Part shown: positions 9,401 to 38,616 of the stretch, piece by piece | Position numbering within the stretch: the first letter of the stretch is position 1 | Layout of the letters: each line of letters opens with the position of its first letter | DNA from: Escherichia phage Phi1 | Sequence record: EF437941 | Length of the DNA stretch: 64,000 nt | Strand: one strand, 5' to 3' | Position numbers and translations under genes: made by a program | The notes under the pieces: model-generated | Database searches by the model: none | Told to the model about the DNA's origin: nothing | Seen by the model: only the letters and a program-made list of their open reading frames with translations

Positions 9401-9528
9401 GTCCACTGTTTGACCAGTCGGCGGTAACATTCTCTATGTTCCGTGAACTTGTAGATAAACGGTTGAAGGATAATATAGGGAATCCACGCGATCCGAAGAA
9501 TCCGACACAGAGGAAAATTAATGGCTAA
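6442..9528 (+). CDS. 7: baseplate wedge initiator gp7
   Basis: 1028 aa (T4 gp7 is about 1030 aa); synteny. Confidence 0.85.
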   Translation: MIKAPSVTSLTIEKLSANQAYITWDDVGENFFYFVELAETRTRDGEVIPVDELSWVNLGYTAEQNWFEDKNLFPEYYYKFRVAVAAEGFEQSKWVETEEFQTFKTNAYNFSMMREFNLANEFVKQKFTYDNRDYIKFNTDLIQASLMKEDFVFSPEYANMTNISNYIVVDENFHEIQDHIEKVCTDINRTMLAEMNGVLYLFERFQPIVKVSNDKGQSWKAYKAFNDRVGNPVSRTCVYQSKTTTYVLGYDRIFYGRQASDTRWIADDVRFSDDTITFAKVGDENDLGFDVEVFGVFSRLTGDTTKYAEAMACSDDYLWVGAKDVIRRIRLKNTPVDTVQGSPTFGEKIFDPDVIRVTGNDKAVIQKMDVIDGKLLVFVTGEVKQRYQDPTKPENVVPSDDAGVYLIGSDGLSFQRVFGNTPQEREYIQHGFSNMSTNGDEVFISHYNHHFESILPDPETAAKYELGEAVKYSQEPTYLTDKKIHQTTFRASYDDLRIWELGPQAYYNEADYTWMRRNGVRVWITNDNRPLVVYPEVIYTQEVDTSGILDQNRVNREVYDKGTVTCYLNNVKFEGFKQYASGVMFHKNTGEIIGFYQFNYRVRDQVGVYWKPTNVAFVAELQNQVREVPWVPVHYDREQDPDLRPLLNKMTPDSFLLENENFRKFSEYYLQFLSDGSGTYYNKLKNLIKNKYPREQDAYEYLWSEMNKRNIYADKNKRDAVVRFFESRKSDFYSTKGVEASYKFLFKLLYNEDVEIEVESQAGLEYDIVVSSTNIDEDIVGRTIYTPTGRANVTYLEREYEGGRLRWRVTIHNLIGRFEEGQVIKSEKTAFEGMILVGVRGKELLSSSIDYINRSRSQYTMKIKSALPVSRYANDVMRFVHPVGFGFIGVTLLTMFINSGLSMKHTETIIQSLKNYKFDSGLPSVYPDRVADLDVDGNIKKDPLTGKALYLTSPLIGDEFPVPPEYDQENSELFHGLKASERRFAMSPLFDQSAVTFSMFRELVDKRLKDNIGNPRDPKNPTQRKING

Positions 9529-10516
9529 TGAAAATAGTGTGATCTATCGCTCAATCATTACTAGTAAATTCAGAACGGAAAAACTTCTGAATTTCTATAA
9601 TTCTGTAGGCGATGGGGCAAATCAAATTACAATTTATGGAACGTTTGGACGTTCGGAGCCGTGGTCAGAAAACGAAAAAGAGGTGGGCTTTGCCCCACCT
9701 TATCCGACCGATTCAACGGCTGGTGTTGTTGACATGTGGACCCATATGATGGGGGCGGTTAAGATTAACAAATCACTTCTTGATGCGGTTATCCCTCGTA
9801 AAGATTGGGGTGATACCGGACAGGATAACCCGCGCACATTCTTTATCAATGACATTGTTGTTGTCAACTCAGCACCATATAACCGAACTGATGTTGGTAG
9901 CGGCTGGATGGTGTATCGCGTAACCGATGTTCCTGATCGCGGTTACTGCTCGATTTCAAGCATTGACGCTAAAGTAGAGTGTTTGAAGTTGGGCGGAAAG
10001 TGGACACCCACTCATGAATCAATTGCGCCACCTGTAGGAAAGGGCGATTCTATTGATATGGGTGATGGGTATCGTTGGGAATATCTGTACACAATTCCAC
10101 CTGATGCGGCGATCAACCGTTGCACCAATGAACATATTGTTGTTCCATTCCCGGATGAATTGAGACAAGATCCGGCGCGTTGGGGCTATGACAATGTGAT
10201 CACCTGGTATAATGACTATAATCTGCTTTATCGGCTGAAAGTAGTAACTTTGCGTTTTCAGGCTTATATGGACTCTGCGCAATTCCCAACTACCGCGTTA
10301 GTGGGTAATACTGGTTTCCGTCAGTTAAGCATTATCCTTAACCCATTGGAAAAGAAAGCACGCCCTAGCGATCCAGACGTTAAAGCGGTTCAAGATAAGT
10401 ACCGTCCGCAAGACTTAGAGCCACACTCAGGAGAAATGATCTACATGGAAAACCGACAACCTATCGTTCGGTCATTAGATCAAACAGAACTTGTTTCTGT
10501 ATTGTTTGAGTTCTAA
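9521..10516 (+). CDS. 8: baseplate wedge protein gp8
   Basis: 331 aa (T4 gp8 about 334 aa); synteny. Confidence 0.8.
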   Translation: MANENSVIYRSIITSKFRTEKLLNFYNSVGDGANQITIYGTFGRSEPWSENEKEVGFAPPYPTDSTAGVVDMWTHMMGAVKINKSLLDAVIPRKDWGDTGQDNPRTFFINDIVVVNSAPYNRTDVGSGWMVYRVTDVPDRGYCSISSIDAKVECLKLGGKWTPTHESIAPPVGKGDSIDMGDGYRWEYLYTIPPDAAINRCTNEHIVVPFPDELRQDPARWGYDNVITWYNDYNLLYRLKVVTLRFQAYMDSAQFPTTALVGNTGFRQLSIILNPLEKKARPSDPDVKAVQDKYRPQDLEPHSGEMIYMENRQPIVRSLDQTELVSVLFEF

Positions 10517-10530
10517 GTGTATGATTTAAA

Positions 10531-10557
10531 AGCCAATTCGAGAGAGTTGGCTTTTTC
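10531..10557 (+). terminator. rho-independent terminator after gene 8
   Basis: Hairpin AGCCAA-loop-TTGGCT followed by TTTTT. Confidence 0.6.
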
Positions 10558-10567
10558 TATTTTGGGT

Positions 10568-10597
10568 GTTTACAATCTTGTCTGGTAAAGGTATAAT
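10568..10597 (+). promoter_or_regulatory. sigma70-type (early) promoter for the methyltransferase island
   Basis: GTTTACA, 17-18 bp spacer, TATAAT; about 35 nt upstream of the 85-aa ORF. Confidence 0.6.
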
Positions 10598-10629
10598 GCT
10601 CACATCTAAACAACGGAGGAGGATAAATT

Positions 10630-10887
10630 ATGGCACGTCGTAAATTTACAGATAATTGTGAAGCAATTCAGGTATCCCCTTGCGGTTGGGATGTGATCGC
10701 GAACGGTGAAAAGATTGGAGAGATCATCGATCATACTCATTCATCACTAGCCGATTACACCGATGAACTATGGGAGGGTATCAACTTCATGAATGACACT
10801 AAACGATTCAAGACTATCGACGAAGCTATCTATTTTGTGTATAATCCAACTTTCGGTATGTGGGGAACTAGAAAATGGCACGCGTAA
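10630..10887 (+). CDS. hypothetical protein (85 aa)
   Basis: ATG with RBS GGAGGAGG; first gene of the island inserted between genes 8 and 9. Confidence 0.55.
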   Translation: MARRKFTDNCEAIQVSPCGWDVIANGEKIGEIIDHTHSSLADYTDELWEGINFMNDTKRFKTIDEAIYFVYNPTFGMWGTRKWHA

Positions 10888-11207
10888 ATATTAAATTGCA
10901 TTACACAATGAATAAAGCTAAGTTCCCAATGCAAAAGCATTACTATGGTCTACGTGCACAAGATCCCAAACTCTATGGTACTCATTGGTTTTGTAAACAT
11001 GATAACCAATGGCACACATACGAAGAAATGAACGAGATGATGAAACAGGGTATTGAATTTAGTTATTCTAACTATGACCATCGTATAACTTGCATTCGAA
11101 AATTGAAACGATGGATTCGTAAGAATCCGCAATTTAAAAACTTTGTGTTCTTTATGTCTCATGTTTATTTGGGACATAGCGTTACCGTCACAGCAAAGGT
11201 TAAATAA
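10875..11207 (+). CDS. hypothetical protein (110 aa)
   Basis: ATG overlapping the upstream ORF end; Cys/His-containing; no recognised motif. Confidence 0.5.
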   Translation: MARVNIKLHYTMNKAKFPMQKHYYGLRAQDPKLYGTHWFCKHDNQWHTYEEMNEMMKQGIEFSYSNYDHRITCIRKLKRWIRKNPQFKNFVFFMSHVYLGHSVTVTAKVK

Positions 11208-12046
11208 TGGCACGACTTTCTAAACAAGAACAAAAATTACATAACCGAGCAATGGAGTTGATTAATTCAGATCGTCCATTGACATATGAAGAAAAAGAAT
11301 TTTGCTATAATAACTATCATGGCGATGGGCTAGGTGGTTCCGGTGCATTCTTTACCCCAGAAGGGCTTGCATGGGATTTTACCATCGATGCACATTGCAC
11401 AGGAAAAGTATTAGATCTTTGTGCTGGGATCGGTCGCTTATCTTTTTGTATGTTACATCGTTGTAAGCCAGAAAAGATCGTATGCGTCGAACTCAATCCA
11501 GAATTTGCGCGGATTGGCAAGCGACTATTACCGGAGGCAGAATGGATCACCAGCGATGTATTCGAATTTGAGTCAAACGAAAAATTCGATGTGGTGATCA
11601 GCAATCCACCCTTCGGGAAAATCAATACAACCGACACAAAGGATGTATTTGAGTACACTGGCGGCGAATTTGAATTTAAGGTTATGACATTAGGCCAGAA
11701 GTTTGCCGATGTAGGTTATTTTATTGTTCCTTCTGGTTCCGCTGGTTTTGCCTATTCCGGCAGACCTTATTATGACGGGACCATGAAGTCTAATAAATAT
11801 CTAAAATGGAGCAAACAAACTGGTTTGGTGACTTATGCCGGATGTGGGATCGATACATCAATCTATCGCGATGAATGGCATAGTACCAACGTTTTAACAG
11901 AAGTGGTTGAGGTTCGGTATTACGAAAAAGAAGCCGTAGAAGCTCCTAAATCACGTCCTAACGAACAAATAGAAGAAAGTAAGGAGATTACCTTACCGAA
12001 ACAGGAAAGCGAGTCTGGGACGCTCTCAGATTTGTTTGACATTTAA
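11207..12046 (+). CDS. SAM-dependent methyltransferase, amino-MTase (NPPF) type, putative DNA N6-adenine methyltransferase
   Basis: Motif order FFTP (X) - VLDLCAGIG (I) - VISNPPFG (IV), typical of gamma-class amino-methyltransferases; 279 aa. Confidence 0.6.
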   Translation: MARLSKQEQKLHNRAMELINSDRPLTYEEKEFCYNNYHGDGLGGSGAFFTPEGLAWDFTIDAHCTGKVLDLCAGIGRLSFCMLHRCKPEKIVCVELNPEFARIGKRLLPEAEWITSDVFEFESNEKFDVVISNPPFGKINTTDTKDVFEYTGGEFEFKVMTLGQKFADVGYFIVPSGSAGFAYSGRPYYDGTMKSNKYLKWSKQTGLVTYAGCGIDTSIYRDEWHSTNVLTEVVEVRYYEKEAVEAPKSRPNEQIEESKEITLPKQESESGTLSDLFDI

Positions 12047-12051
12047 TTATA

Positions 12052-12077
12052 AGCCGTCCTTGTGGGCGGCTTTTTTG
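12052..12077 (+). terminator. rho-independent terminator after the methyltransferase
   Basis: Hairpin AGCCGTCC-loop-GGGCGGCT followed by TTTTTT. Confidence 0.6.
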
Positions 12078-12086
12078 TATGTATTT

Positions 12087-12094
12087 TATAAATA
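12087..12094 (+). promoter_or_regulatory. late promoter TATAAATA upstream of gene 9
   Basis: Exact TATAAATA 28 nt upstream of the gene 9 ATG. Confidence 0.6.
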
Positions 12095-12121
12095 ATACAT
12101 CATAACATGAGGAATTAAACA

Positions 12122-12976
12122 ATGGCACAAGTTCCAAAGAAAAGAATAGACACAGGTACTGTCGGCAATCCATCGACTGGCGATATCTTATATGATGGCG
12201 GTAATAAAATTAACGATAACTTTGATTCAATATATGACGCATTTGCTGATCAGCGGTTTAAAGACGTAGACCACGGCGTGGGAAGAATGGTTATTCATGC
12301 AACCGGATACTATCAGAAGCATCCACGTCAAAGCTACGCTGGTTCCGCTGTTGAGATTGGGAGTCTACACGATATCGATACAACTCAAGGCGCACTTATT
12401 GCTATTCTACCTAAAGCAAAGGTTGGCGAGGGTGTTGTATTCATAAATAGTAACGGTAGCCTTTCAACGACTACACCGCTCAATATTCGAACTCAAGCAG
12501 GTGATTCTATTAGCGGGTATTCCGGTGATGCTACAATAACACAACCATTTTCAAAAGTCACTGTTTGGTGTACTGCCGTTGAAGGTAGTCGCGTAACATG
12601 GCGATTGGGTATCGAAAGTATGTTTACCGATACAACAACGCCATTAGATAAAACAGTTAACGTAACTGGAGTAGCAACAAACGTTGCTATTGCCGCAAAA
12701 ACAGAATATGTTTCCATCAAATTATTAACTACCGCTAGCAATACATCCGGTTCAAAAATGCGTTCAAGTGAAACGCTACTGATGATTGATTCTAAAGCCG
12801 GAAAAGTTTATGCGACGGAATATGCAGTTTTGCAGAAGACAGAAGATGAACTATACACGGTTCGTTATTTCATCGGTTCCGGCGATAAAGTATATGCAGA
12901 GTATAAGGCTACTGGCGAAAATATTCGTTTAGCAGTTAAAGCCGTAGACACTATTAAAATCGGGGTTGCTACATGA
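12122..12976 (+). CDS. 9: baseplate wedge / long tail fibre connector gp9
   Basis: 284 aa; N-terminal KKRIDTGTVGNPSTGDILYDGGNKIN resembles T4 gp9; synteny. Confidence 0.85.
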   Translation: MAQVPKKRIDTGTVGNPSTGDILYDGGNKINDNFDSIYDAFADQRFKDVDHGVGRMVIHATGYYQKHPRQSYAGSAVEIGSLHDIDTTQGALIAILPKAKVGEGVVFINSNGSLSTTTPLNIRTQAGDSISGYSGDATITQPFSKVTVWCTAVEGSRVTWRLGIESMFTDTTTPLDKTVNVTGVATNVAIAAKTEYVSIKLLTTASNTSGSKMRSSETLLMIDSKAGKVYATEYAVLQKTEDELYTVRYFIGSGDKVYAEYKATGENIRLAVKAVDTIKIGVAT

Positions 12977-14775
12977 AACAATTAATTAATATCGGTAACG
13001 TTGTTGATGACGGTACAGGTGATTATCTAAGAAAAGGCGGTCAAAAGATTAATGACAACTTTTCTGAACTTTATACTAAGCTGGGGGATGGTGATATCCC
13101 TCATGCATCCGGCGCGTGGAAAACTCACACACAACCAGTATTAAAACCAAATTTTGGTGATGCATGGGCGATTAATACAACGAACAACGCTGTTTCTGTT
13201 GAATTACCTAAAGGAAGCGCGAGTGATTACAATAAAACAATTAAACTTCGTGATGTTTGGCGCTCATGGGCTGCACATAACGTAACATTGAAGCCAGCAC
13301 AAGGTGATACCATTAAGGGATCTCCAATCGACCGTGAGTTGTATAAAGATTTCATGGATGTTGAATTGGTTTATTGTGCGCCCGGACGTTGGGAATATGT
13401 CGAAAATAAACGAGTAGATACTATCACCACTTCCGATTTAAGCACAGTCGCTAAGGAAGTTTATATTGCAACCGAAGGACAAACAGACTTCCCTAATGTG
13501 TTTGGTTCCAATACTTACAATATTCGAAATGTTGAAGTGTATTATCGCGGTAACTTGCTTTATTATGGCAAGGATTTAACCGATGATTCTAACTATGGTT
13601 CAATCGGTGAAAACGGTGATATTGTTCCGCTGGACGGTAAAAGCATTAAATTACGCTTCCCTTGTTCGGCGGGTGATACCATTCAAATCATCACTTATAT
13701 GGACGGTATCGCATCCTTCCGGTCAAGCTATATTACTCATACAATCCGCGTTTATGAAACAGGAATGACCACTTTGGAATCCATCCCAGGTGAAGTTTGG
13801 GTTGGTGAACTAGCTAATAAGAAAGAATTTACTAATGCGGAATTAGGCGTAAGTAAGAGAGATCTTATTAATCCAAATTCATTTGAATTGCTGATCAACG
13901 GCACACAAATGATTAAAGCGGGTGATGCGGATTTACCTTCCTTTATTTGTGAAGGCGCTGACGGTGAAACAGAAGAAACTTGTGCACTTGCTGGCGGTCA
14001 ATGGGTGGAATCTGGGGAAGATTATTCATTGATGTTCGACGAAAACAGCGTGGTGACCGGTATTAAATTATCTAAAGCACTAGATAACCGAGACACTATC
14101 ACTATTCGCTGGTTTAATAATGATATCGGAACATTAATGGAATGGGACGGTGTAGGCGGTATTAAAGAAAAAGCAGATAAAATCTATCTTAATAACGAAG
14201 ATGAAGTTACGCTGACAAATCGAATTGAATATACCGATTTCCAGAATCCAAGCCAAGCAACTAAACGCCCAATGGAAGATTATACAGGTCGTGTGATGGA
14301 TATCTATTCCATATTCGATATTTTCTATCCTATAGGCACAATTTATGAAAATGCGCATAACCCAGCTAACCCAGCGACATATATGGGATTTGGTACATGG
14401 GTACGTTATGCAGAAAAAGAATTTTTAGTTGGTTGGTCTTCTGACGCAAGCGATCAAAACTTCGCACTAAACAACAACGATCTTGATACACATGGTCAAC
14501 CTACACACACCGCAGGGGGTAACGGTGGTGATGTTGCATACCAGATCAAGAAAAATATGATTCCTGAATTACAGAGCGACGATCGAGTTCTTGTAAAAGA
14601 TGATAACGGAAATATTATTATCGGTGGTTGTCAGGTAGACCCTGATGCAGTAGGTCCAGCGTTTACCAAATATCGCGAAGATAATATTAAAGTTAATCAG
14701 GGAAATACCGACCCGTCAATGATTGGTATTCTTCCCCCATACAGAACTGTCTATCGTTGGTTAAGGGTAGGTTAA
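12973..14775 (+). CDS. 10: baseplate wedge subunit and tail pin gp10
   Basis: 600 aa; N-terminus MKQLINIGNVVDDGTGDYLRKGG close to T4 gp10; synteny. Confidence 0.9.
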   Translation: MKQLINIGNVVDDGTGDYLRKGGQKINDNFSELYTKLGDGDIPHASGAWKTHTQPVLKPNFGDAWAINTTNNAVSVELPKGSASDYNKTIKLRDVWRSWAAHNVTLKPAQGDTIKGSPIDRELYKDFMDVELVYCAPGRWEYVENKRVDTITTSDLSTVAKEVYIATEGQTDFPNVFGSNTYNIRNVEVYYRGNLLYYGKDLTDDSNYGSIGENGDIVPLDGKSIKLRFPCSAGDTIQIITYMDGIASFRSSYITHTIRVYETGMTTLESIPGEVWVGELANKKEFTNAELGVSKRDLINPNSFELLINGTQMIKAGDADLPSFICEGADGETEETCALAGGQWVESGEDYSLMFDENSVVTGIKLSKALDNRDTITIRWFNNDIGTLMEWDGVGGIKEKADKIYLNNEDEVTLTNRIEYTDFQNPSQATKRPMEDYTGRVMDIYSIFDIFYPIGTIYENAHNPANPATYMGFGTWVRYAEKEFLVGWSSDASDQNFALNNNDLDTHGQPTHTAGGNGGDVAYQIKKNMIPELQSDDRVLVKDDNGNIIIGGCQVDPDAVGPAFTKYREDNIKVNQGNTDPSMIGILPPYRTVYRWLRVG

Positions 14776-36261: not shown

Positions 36262-36289
36262 ATTATAGGCATCTAAATCGCTCTGTCAA
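36262..36289 (-). promoter_or_regulatory. consensus sigma70 promoter (- strand)
   Basis: On the - strand: TTGACA, 16 bp, TATAAT; drives the membrane-protein/HTH pair through a roughly 120-nt leader. Confidence 0.6.
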
Positions 36290-36293
36290 GCAC

Positions 36294-36324
36294 AAAAACA
36301 AAAAAGCCACCCCGAAGGATGGCT
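36294..36324 (-). terminator. rho-independent terminator (- strand) after hoc
   Basis: On the - strand: AGCCATCC-TTCG-GGGTGGCT followed by TTTTTTGTTTTT. Confidence 0.65.
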
Positions 36325-36335
36325 GATAGATTTCA

Positions 36336-37890: not shown

Positions 37891-38616
37891 TTACTTGAGT
37901 GTGTGGAATTGGCTATGTTTAGTCTCTCGCACCTTGACAGACCCATCGCGTTTGATATAATAGATCAGTGACTTGAGGGTGTCGTGTACATACGCGTGCG
38001 GGAAACGCTCTGGATACTTCTTCCAATCTGGAGTATTAACGATCCAGTCGAAAATCCACCACGGGCAGGAGTAGTAACCACGACCGCCACCGATCAAACA
38101 AATGGTCGGACGGAAACCAGTAAGATCGCAAAATGAATCAGTGTCATGTGCTGGGGAACGATGTTCTGCTTCGTCAGAGAAAATGTTTGCTACCGGAGAT
38201 TTCACTTTAACTTCCGGTGCTTCTTCAACATCTGACTTAACTTCTTCGACCACTTGTTCAACTGCTGGAGATTCTTCTTTTGTTTCTTCAATGACGATCT
38301 CAGGTTCTTTCATTGCTTCACCCAGAGACGGATCAACTTCGTCAAATACTACTTTATCATCTGCGGTATCTGCTGCCAGAATAAGATCGTTAATACTGGT
38401 TCCTTCTGCCGGAGTTTCTTCTTCCATTTCGGAAGCCAGTTTAGTTAATTCGGTTTCTACGAACTCGATCATGTTCTCTAGCGAGAGCGTCTTTTTGACC
38501 TTTATATCAAATTGTTTTGCGTAGTCCGCTAATTCTGTTTTAGCTGTTTTCTGTGCTTCTTTGTCGTCGGACGCCGCAATAGCGCGGAGTTCTTCGAAAT
38601 ATTCTTTATCAAACAT
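37891..38616 (-). CDS. Inh-like protein (tentative), acidic N-terminal region and Cys-containing C-terminal domain
   Basis: 241 aa; RBS AGGAGA; sits between hoc and uvsW where T4 has inh; identity rests on position only. Confidence 0.4.
   Translation of the reverse strand: MFDKEYFEELRAIAASDDKEAQKTAKTELADYAKQFDIKVKKTLSLENMIEFVETELTKLASEMEEETPAEGTSINDLILAADTADDKVVFDEVDPSLGEAMKEPEIVIEETKEESPAVEQVVEEVKSDVEEAPEVKVKSPVANIFSDEAEHRSPAHDTDSFCDLTGFRPTICLIGGGRGYYSCPWWIFDWIVNTPDWKKYPERFPHAYVHDTLKSLIYYIKRDGSVKVRETKHSQFHTLK

Follow-up and report, generated by a model that had tools for sequence, protein, structure and literature searches.

A putative sliding-clamp-binding tail on an orphan methyltransferase encoded between baseplate genes 8 and 9 of Krischvirus phages

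Why does an early-type transcription unit with a methyltransferase gene reside among the late baseplate genes of a T4-like phage? This question is raised by a stretch of 64,000 nucleotides (nt) from Escherichia phage Phi1 (sequence record EF437941; hereafter, the window), which comes from the genome of a Krischvirus, that is, an RB49-like coliphage of the T4 type. Between genes 8 and 9, the window carries a 1.6-kb island of three open reading frames (ORFs) on the plus strand: ORF1, ORF2 and the gene for a methyltransferase of 279 amino acids (aa; 11207-12046). A sequence-only reading of this DNA had taken the trio for a mobile anti-restriction or epigenetic cassette. The island, its signals and the concept of promoter-early stem-loop (PeSL) units, to which it belongs, are already public, the annotation of the island extending to dozens of RB49-like genomes; what is new is a clamp-type tail on the methyltransferase. 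In our view, this protein is probably an orphan DNA adenine methyltransferase that docks on the gp45 sliding clamps of the phage and methylates newly made phage DNA.

The methyltransferase consists of a catalytic domain (residues 1-240; 11207-11926), a disordered acidic and polar linker (residues 241-271; 11927-12019), with predicted local distance difference test (pLDDT) values below 50 for residues 246-273, and the C-terminal peptide TLSDLFDI, encoded together with the stop codon at 12020-12046. This peptide closely resembles the end of the phage DNA polymerase: the sequences ...ESGTLSDLFDI-COOH of the methyltransferase and ...KVASLTDLFDI-COOH of RB49 gp43 are identical in 6 of the last 8 residues, including the final five. 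The RB49 gp43 tail aligns with the sequence YEKKASLFDMFDF of RB69 gp43, the last 11 residues of which (peptide KKASLFDMFDF) have been crystallised in complex with the RB69 clamp. In gp43, gp55 and gp33, the C-termini serve as clamp epitopes that can replace one another and are presented on divergent unstructured linkers (PMC2988020). Judging from its sequence and the structural model, the methyltransferase shares both properties of these gp45 ligands, namely the hydrophobic/acidic epitope at the extreme C-terminus and the divergent unstructured linker, and we regard TLSDLFDI as a putative gp45-binding epitope. The homologues differ in the length and sequence of the linker but keep a short terminal motif, and the relatives that encode the enzyme at the same 8/9 junction end with TLDFVDFSEI and SLSMFDI. 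A census of the tail motif among 415 ORFs (the window and 87 kb of RB49) retrieved gp43, gp55 (which ends with SLDQFYEIEN) and the methyltransferase only. The match is maintained in the protein sequence, given that the D and L codons are synonymous yet different (GAT TTG versus GAC CTG between the methyltransferase and gp43). A recent copying of the 3' end of the gp43 gene into the methyltransferase gene was also considered and rejected, as the two genes share just 12 identical nt, preceded by these synonymously different D and L codons.

Clamp-binding motifs are not confined to the Krischvirus enzyme. An exhaustive profile search delineated a family of 1048 clusters (at 50% identity) carried by virulent phages, prophages and other mobile elements, and the best 150 representatives of these clusters, 95 with a C-terminal extension and 51 untailed, were taken for scoring of the last 12 residues. 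The strict pattern Q[LIVMF]x[LIVM]F was detected in 19 of the 95 tailed proteins, compared to 0.11 in shuffled tails (maximum of 2 in 1000 shuffles), and in none of the 51 untailed ones. The looser pattern xLF was present in 44 tailed proteins (shuffled expectation 2.2, maximum 7) and 2 untailed ones, and the catalytic domains contain no copies of the strict motif. The strict-motif tails, including ...QLSLFDAA, ...QLTLF, ...QLALF and ...QLDLFGGAR, can be compared with QL(S/D)LF, the accepted C-terminal motif for binding to the beta clamp (PMC9690074). One such family member adjoins a gene for a single-stranded DNA-binding protein (SSB). Another, on a lambdoid contig (Logan SRR18336524; L026 8001-8768), is encoded in the nin region directly after lambda-type O/P genes and ends with ...EEQQLDLFGEAA; its tail, ...QQLDLFGEAA, corresponds to the consensus beta-clamp motif. 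The window protein has no Q and carries the phage-type motif instead of the beta-type one. From these sequences, the tail appears to track the clamp that is used: lambdoid and other elements would address the host beta clamp, and a phage with a gp45 of its own has a tail of the gp43 type, as if the tail (QLxLF in the former, gp43-like in T4-like phages) were swapped to suit each clamp.

What does the enzyme act upon? The catalytic domain contains motif X, GAFFTP (residues 46-51; 11342-11359), motif I, VLDLCAGIGRLS (residues 68-79; 11408-11443), and motif IV, NPPF (residues 133-136; 11603-11614). The order X-I-IV is that of the gamma class, and the positions of the motifs uphold the assignment to the gamma-class amino-methyltransferases proposed from the sequence alone. 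Among 35 homologues, G46-P51, N133, P134 and F136 are invariant, and P135 is nearly so. In Pfam, the best match is MTS (1e-9), with Eco57I at 1e-6; the Eco57I score of 29 bits passes the Pfam cutoff of 25.3, whereas N6_Mtase, with 16.7 bits versus 20.4, fails. In PHROGs, the protein belongs to phrog_3820, 'DNA methyltransferase' (1e-117). The best NCBIfam matches are PrmC and RsmC, both far under the cutoff: the HemK/PrmC model TIGR03534 yields 37.6 bits versus the required 199.1, in a match confined to residues 64-137, and the RsmC model NF007023 yields 29.2 bits versus 295. Classification with hidden Markov models, suggested as a check by the sequence-only reading, thus indicates neither HemK/PrmC nor RsmC. 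Accordingly, the GenBank names 'release factor glutamine methyltransferase' and 'prmC' found in several records are not supported by these profile comparisons, and the RsmC cutoff is likewise not reached for the note 'similar to rRNA guanine-N2-methyltransferase' (RsmC) in the RB49 record. The AlphaFold model of residues 1-240 (mean pLDDT 84.6; predicted template modelling score 0.80) shows a class I Rossmann methyltransferase fold for which the nearest structures appear to be adenine-N6 enzymes. When the PDB was searched by sequence, both the protein itself and the family profile gave marginal matches only, the best ones (E-values of 4e-4 to 1e-3) to PH1948 and RsmC.

The genomic context of the homologues points in the same direction as the DNA-type motifs. 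Homologues with 44-50% identity are encoded in Pseudotevenvirus, Slopekvirus and a Morganella phage, where the methyltransferase gene is flanked by genes 41 (helicase) and 61 (primase), and further homologues were found in jumbo, Aeromonas and Sinorhizobium phages. The location in the 41/61 slot in some genera and at the 8/9 junction in Krischvirus implies that a single gene family occupies different plastic slots depending on the genus. The 41-61 interval of RB49 (L018 11585-12628) holds dc1, dc2 and 61.1 instead of a methyltransferase homologue. Outside the clade of phages with the 8/9 location, the closest homologues (53-61% identity, approximately 238 aa) are tailless and lie at the ends of enterobacterial prophages or prophage remnants. 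In Citrobacter and Enterobacter chromosomes (L012-L017), such tailless proteins of about 238 aa (53-55%) are encoded by the last prophage gene beside the chromosomal junction; in Citrobacter freundii, an identical protein is present on 887 contigs (1645 blocks of the collection). No restriction gene adjoins any of these homologues, so the family is considered orphan. The domain fusions in long family members are mostly uninformative, with one containing an N6_N4 DNA methylase fragment and another scoring at the N6_Mtase threshold. Taken together, motifs, profiles and neighbourhoods suggest an orphan gamma-class enzyme, with N6-adenine in DNA as the most likely substrate.

From these observations, we infer clamp binding, a DNA substrate and a biological purpose that fit together as follows. 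In Krischvirus and the phages closest to it, the locus would be a PeSL-type early unit fixed between late genes 8 and 9. Its first hairpin would halt transcripts coming from genes 6-8; the sigma70 promoter would drive ORF1, ORF2 and the methyltransferase gene as one translationally coupled early message; and the downstream terminator would end this early unit, with the late promoter TATAAATA restarting transcription from gene 9 onwards. The globular domain, followed by the disordered linker and a tail that copies the clamp-binding tail of the phage polymerase, would be docked on gp45 loaded on phage DNA, and the docked enzyme would methylate freshly replicated, cytosine-unmodified phage DNA in the course of replication. 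The probable benefit would be shielding from host restriction, which is the most economical purpose given that the cytosines of the Krischvirus TB34 are canonical. If so, the methyltransferase would be a new ligand for the gp45 'toolbelt', and the tail offers a testable mechanism for an uncharacterised family of 1048 clusters. The proposal also bears on how T4-like phages that do not possess hypermodified cytosine protect or mark their own DNA.

Several observations weigh against docking and DNA methylation. The top structural and sequence neighbours of the catalytic domain include the rRNA N6-methyladenine (m6A) enzymes METTL5, PH1948, Erm and KsgA, so the fold by itself does not separate DNA from RNA substrates. 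The model comprises one domain of approximately 240 residues and a disordered tail, and no separate C-terminal target-recognition domain is present in it. In the DNA of TB34, no modified nucleosides were detected by high-performance liquid chromatography and mass spectrometry (PMC13390438), which argues against dense methylation; that study centred on cytosine derivatives, and the Dam-type m6A expected of a dam-encoding phage was also unreported. RB49 already has a separate dam gene (RB49p063). As for the tail, DLFTFTIE of the Slopekvirus/Pseudotevenvirus methyltransferase shares only the DLF core with the respective gp43 end, SLNDLFGDW; the tail of the Morganella phage enzyme shows no likeness to the gp43 tail of the same phage; and the closest prophage homologues are those that lack a tail, which implies that tethering is not essential to the enzyme. 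The same study of phage DNA compared TB34 with SAP, a second Krischvirus phage of 99.96% identity, and reported a complete difference in cytosine modification: SAP contains bases of the glucosyl-hydroxymethylcytosine type and TB34 has none, and the difference was left unexplained, the biosynthetic genes not having been identified in the paper (PMC13390438). The amino-methyltransferase of the island is not an obvious explanation for the cytosine modification of SAP.

A more ambitious form of the docking proposal, which we put forward as a speculation of low probability, would make the family the first prokaryotic counterpart of DNMT1-PCNA. The Krischvirus tail would fit the phage's own gp45 and not the host beta clamp, and methylation would serve as a replisome-specific 'self' mark that replaces hydroxymethylcytosine in protection against both restriction and the phage's own nucleases. 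Under this scenario, methylation would be confined to DNA made by the phage replisome, and progeny genomes would be spared from the phage nucleases directed at host DNA; RB49 does encode such a nuclease, denA/EndoII.

The likeliest alternative to docking and DNA methylation is that the protein modifies RNA (m6A or N2-methylguanine (m2G) in rRNA or tRNA) or, in the manner of HemK, glutamine in a protein, in either case for the takeover of translation. The MTS family that gives the best Pfam match is the small-domain family of RsmC, RsmD and HemK, the leading NCBIfam models and several GenBank annotations imply a role of this kind, NPPF is also a motif of m2G and glutamine methyltransferases, and the apparent absence of modified nucleosides from TB34 DNA would be readily accommodated. 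Nevertheless, the NCBIfam scores are 5-10 times under the family cutoffs, and GAFFTP as motif X, together with the matches to Eco57I and N6_Mtase, resembles DNA enzymes of the gamma class. Moreover, a DNA-clamp tail would be senseless on an enzyme acting on RNA or protein, yet such tails are strongly enriched throughout the family, the genomic neighbours of which are replication genes (41/61, lambda O/P, SSB). We therefore consider an RNA or protein substrate unlikely.

Another possibility is that the protein is an ordinary, untethered orphan DNA methyltransferase and that the likeness of its end to the gp43 tail is due to chance or is non-functional. The tail is just 8 residues long, the nearest prophage homologues do without one, and the correspondence with gp43 is only a loose one in other T4-like genera. 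However, the identical residues include the final five and occupy the extreme C-terminus behind a disordered linker, as they do in gp55 and gp33; in the ORF census, the motif was shared with no proteins other than known clamp ligands; and the canonical beta-clamp motifs recur independently in the tailed relatives far in excess of the shuffled expectation. Fortuitous resemblance is thus an improbable explanation.

The protein could also be primarily a competitor or regulator of the clamp, for example, one that titrates gp45 away from the polymerase or from late RNA polymerase early in infection, with the methyltransferase domain being secondary. Indeed, gp43, gp55 and gp33 share and compete for sites on gp45 (PMC2988020), clamp-binding toxins such as SocB exist (PMC9690074), and a strong early promoter precedes the gene. 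Against this, tailless homologues are common, there is no sign of toxicity, and GAFFTP, the S-adenosylmethionine loop and NPPF are invariant in 35 diverse homologues; such invariance of the catalytic motifs points to an active enzyme, and we hold a mainly competitive role to be very improbable. Docking on gp45 coupled to DNA methylation remains our preferred interpretation of the protein.

How the gene came to lie between genes 8 and 9 is a separate question, which starts from the signals that frame the island. Gene 8, a late gene that encodes a baseplate wedge subunit (9521-10516, plus strand; Pfam Phage-Gp8, 2.2e-143; phrog_977), forms the left border, and gene 9, for the baseplate wedge tail-fibre connector (12122-12976, plus strand; T4_gp9_10_N, 1.4e-40; phrog_967), the right one. 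Downstream of gene 8, a hairpin terminator (10528-10555, plus strand) with a 12-bp stem followed by a T-run has a predicted folding energy of -15.6 kcal/mol (z = -4.8), a value that none of 200 shuffles equals; it lies just upstream of position 10561, where the sequence-only reading had placed the start of the island. Thirteen nt separate the end of this hairpin from the -35 element of a sigma70 early-type promoter (10568-10597, plus strand), which consists of GTTTACA (10568-10574), a 17-nt spacer and TATAAT (10592-10597) and matches the consensus in 11 of 12 positions. The exact pattern GTTTAC-N17-19-TATAAT occurs once in the 64 kb, compared to an expected 0.05. A Shine-Dalgarno sequence read off the DNA, GGAGGAGGA (10615-10623, plus strand), precedes the ORF1 ATG at 10630. 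The early unit is closed by a second intrinsic terminator (delimited as 12051-12072 or 12051-12078, plus strand) with a 9-bp stem, including 6 GC pairs, and a T-run (-15.9 kcal/mol, z = -4.6). Beyond it, and overlooked in the initial reading, lies the T4-type late promoter TATAAATA (12087-12094, plus strand), 28 nt before the gene 9 ATG; 9 of the 10 copies of this sequence in the window are on the late (plus) strand. The depositors of the GEC-3S record had already marked a terminator, a promoter with -35 and -10 elements at the island start, three hypothetical coding sequences (CDS) and a terminator here. The locus thus combines the traits by which PeSLs are recognised, namely a strong intergenic promoter of sigma70 consensus, a stem-loop upstream of the -35 element, and a Shine-Dalgarno sequence with the start of an ORFan. 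Every element that the sequence-only reading had listed is present, in support of its view of an autonomous, terminator-insulated early-type unit with its own promoter and terminators inside the late baseplate cluster.

The three coding regions overlap at their stop and start codons (10630-10887, 10875-11207 and 11207-12046), and all three open with ATGGCACG, which occurs 5 times in the window versus 1.4 expected (1 of 100 shuffles reaches 5). The shared start noted from the sequence alone is therefore real, but its significance as a mark of the cassette does not hold up: ATGGCA starts are common (8 of the 71 long ORFs of the window) and the family of the methyltransferase conserves MA[RK] throughout. 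We dropped ATGGCACG as a signature of a cassette or mobile element and consider it a weak curiosity that probably reflects a preference in start context.

Unlike the methyltransferase, its two companions have the appearance of accessory genes. ORF1 (10630-10887, plus strand; 85 aa, acidic; phrog_16603) and ORF2 (10875-11207, plus strand; 110 aa, basic; phrog_12630) belong to families of unknown function, and neither has a match in Pfam or NCBIfam. ORF2 has conserved Cys and His residues, of which C40, H42, H47, H69 and C73 could bind a metal; its AlphaFold2 model is poor (pLDDT 60.7), and a search of 5.8 billion proteins with ORF2 recovered only Krischvirus alleles. Two alleles of ORF2, at about 99% and about 73% identity, exist within Krischvirus, and the homologues in rV5-like phages show 58-60% identity, being closer to the RB49 allele (69.7%) than to the window allele (60.0%). 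ORF1 was found only in Krischvirus and, at 69-70% identity, in a few Vequintavirus genomes. In the early regions of rV5-like Vequintavirus phages, ORF1 and ORF2, or ORF2 alone, are encoded at 58-70% identity with no methyltransferase nearby; examples are FV3 (L010 3501-4075) and FFH2 (L011 3501-3830). The sharing of these genes between Krischvirus (Straboviridae) and Vequintavirus, unrelated myovirus lineages that infect E. coli, points to gene exchange between families. A mosaic patch is apparent between close relatives: at the DNA level, the window and RB49 are 99-100% identical in gp8, in gp9 and over the greater part of the methyltransferase gene, and 61-93% identical over 10700-11300, with 61% in ORF2. 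In RB49, an 11-nt deletion (window 10777-10787) shifts the frame of ORF1, which implies either that ORF1 is dispensable or that the reference sequence is in error; the RB49 record splits the gene into CDS RB49p140 and RB49p141 (L001 4127-4373, equivalent to window 10630-10887). On these comparisons, ORF1 and ORF2 are putative early add-ons that are dispensable or exchangeable.

Across 9500-13000, the window is 96-98.7% identical to kaaroe, Cognac, RB49, JSE, GEC-3S and approximately 50 further records. A Krischvirus-type gp8 (at least 95% identity) was found in 57 records; the island is present in all 57, and so is the methyltransferase (at least 90%). The trio is thus conserved core content at the genus level, an outcome that the sequence-only reading had itself named in advance as evidence against a mobile cassette, and the island is not a recent insertion given this fixation, the annotation of the same signals in GEC-3S and the correspondence of the unit to the published PeSL type. 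Two metagenomic relatives (gp8 identity of 88% and 80%; methyltransferase identity of approximately 57-65%) encode the methyltransferase at the same 8/9 junction and contain no ORF1 or ORF2. Both have a hairpin and a TTGACA promoter after gene 8 and a terminator with TATAAATA before gene 9, the latter in the equivalent position in L023 and L025. Upstream of the methyltransferase gene, no ORF is present in L023/L024, and an unrelated 154-aa ORF is present in L025. The baseplate region of L023, a Krischvirus-related contig, also includes a gene on the opposite strand (228-710), placed between gp2 and gp53, that has a TnsA-like endonuclease domain at its N-terminal end. The concept of the three genes as one unit does not survive these comparisons, since in more distant relatives this junction holds either a solitary methyltransferase gene or one accompanied by the 154-aa ORF, and the rV5-like phages have ORF1 and ORF2 with no methyltransferase at all. 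Joint movement of the whole trio was rejected also because KP15 and Morganella Mm5 have, upstream of the methyltransferase gene, ORFs that share no homology with ORF1 or ORF2. By sequence comparison, the island is composite, the methyltransferase gene and the regulatory frame being the old and stable part.

Consistent with the adjacency of genes 8 and 9 that the sequence-only reading stated for T4, the gap between them is 63 bp in the Tequatrovirus wV7 and 9-11 bp in the Pseudotevenvirus IME-CF2, the Slopekvirus phiEap-3 and one Aeromonas phage, so the island is lineage-specific and missing from this junction in T4 and three other T4-like genera. Although these four empty junctions, the bordering PeSL-type elements, which are known mediators of shuffling (PMC2839356), and the mosaic patch over ORF1 and ORF2 might speak for a recently gained, self-contained mobile cassette of three genes, this scenario is the least credible of all given the fixation of the island in Krischvirus, the relatives that have the methyltransferase and not ORF1/ORF2, the separate travel of the latter, the flanks in the window, where there are no repeats, integrase or homing endonuclease, and the failure to observe either an empty Krischvirus 8/9 junction or an intact trio elsewhere.

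Similar promoter arrangements are present in other parts of the window. On the minus strand, at 36262-36330, the hairpin GCCATCCTTCGGGGTGGC with a T-run is followed by a perfect (12/12) TTGACA-16-TATAAT promoter; the layout is that of the PeSL subclass at 10528-10597, and the surroundings are otherwise a late region. Two more 12/12 promoters are located at 35717-35690 (minus strand) and 37934-37961 (plus strand). Between 49200 and 59700, the minus strand is densely populated by strong early promoters with the shared upstream context AAAAAGTTGTTGACA[GC]G ... [TC]ATAAT (at approximately 49246, 52191, 52440, 54573, 55175, 55522, 56301, 58092, 59256 and 59651), and this stretch, at about 49-60 kb, has the appearance of a hyperplastic region of small early ORFs that is rich in PeSLs.

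The PeSL cassettes of RB49 and phi1 were described previously (Arbiol et al. 2010, PMC2839356; Comeau et al. 2014, PMC4122927). A small number of them are situated within virion modules, beside genes of unknown function, where the stem-loops would block spill-over between early ORFans and late virion genes (PMC2839356). Reporter assays of promoters and terminators cover other PeSLs and not 10528-10597 (PMC2839356), and the two papers contain no mention of the 8/9 locus or the methyltransferase. The island resembles the cassettes of the same genus in having a strong sigma70-like promoter with a stem-loop terminator immediately before it and a Shine-Dalgarno sequence and an ORFan start after it; it differs in that the unit is fixed between close relatives, with shuffling in the ORF1/ORF2 portion only.

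With respect to the enzyme, the literature searched contains no characterisation of the family and no report, from bacteria or phages, of a methyltransferase that bears a clamp-binding motif. The protein is similar to T4 Dam in being a phage-encoded orphan adenine methyltransferase of T4-like phages, but T4 Dam, an alpha-class enzyme that recognises GATC, represents a different class and a different gene. Similarity to the gamma-class N6-adenine DNA enzymes is marginal (E = 0.02 to TaqI), and in contrast to M.TaqI, M.BseCI, HsdM and Eco57I/MmeI, the island enzyme has neither a C-terminal target-recognition domain nor a partner S or R subunit. From METTL5 and PH1948 it is distinguished by an identity of 16-25% over the core only and by the lack of a TRMT112-type partner, as well as by an extra N-terminal helical segment, a C-terminal subdomain and the clamp-type tail. 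The tail is like those of gp43, gp55 and gp33, with a hydrophobic/acidic peptide at the extreme C-terminus, a variable unstructured linker and near-identity to the cognate gp43 tail; the difference is that the carrier of this putative ligand peptide is a methyltransferase rather than a polymerase or transcription factor. The sole link between a methyltransferase and a clamp in a review of clamp interactions is eukaryotic Dnmt1-PCNA (PMC9690074), where a short clamp motif, the PCNA-interacting peptide (PIP) box, brings the enzyme to new DNA for replication-coupled maintenance. The fold class (C5-cytosine as opposed to amino-methyltransferase), the motif and the clamp are all unrelated in the two cases, so the relationship is one of analogy and not homology. 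The tail of the phage enzyme suggests that replication-coupled, clamp-tethered DNA methylation also arose in phages.

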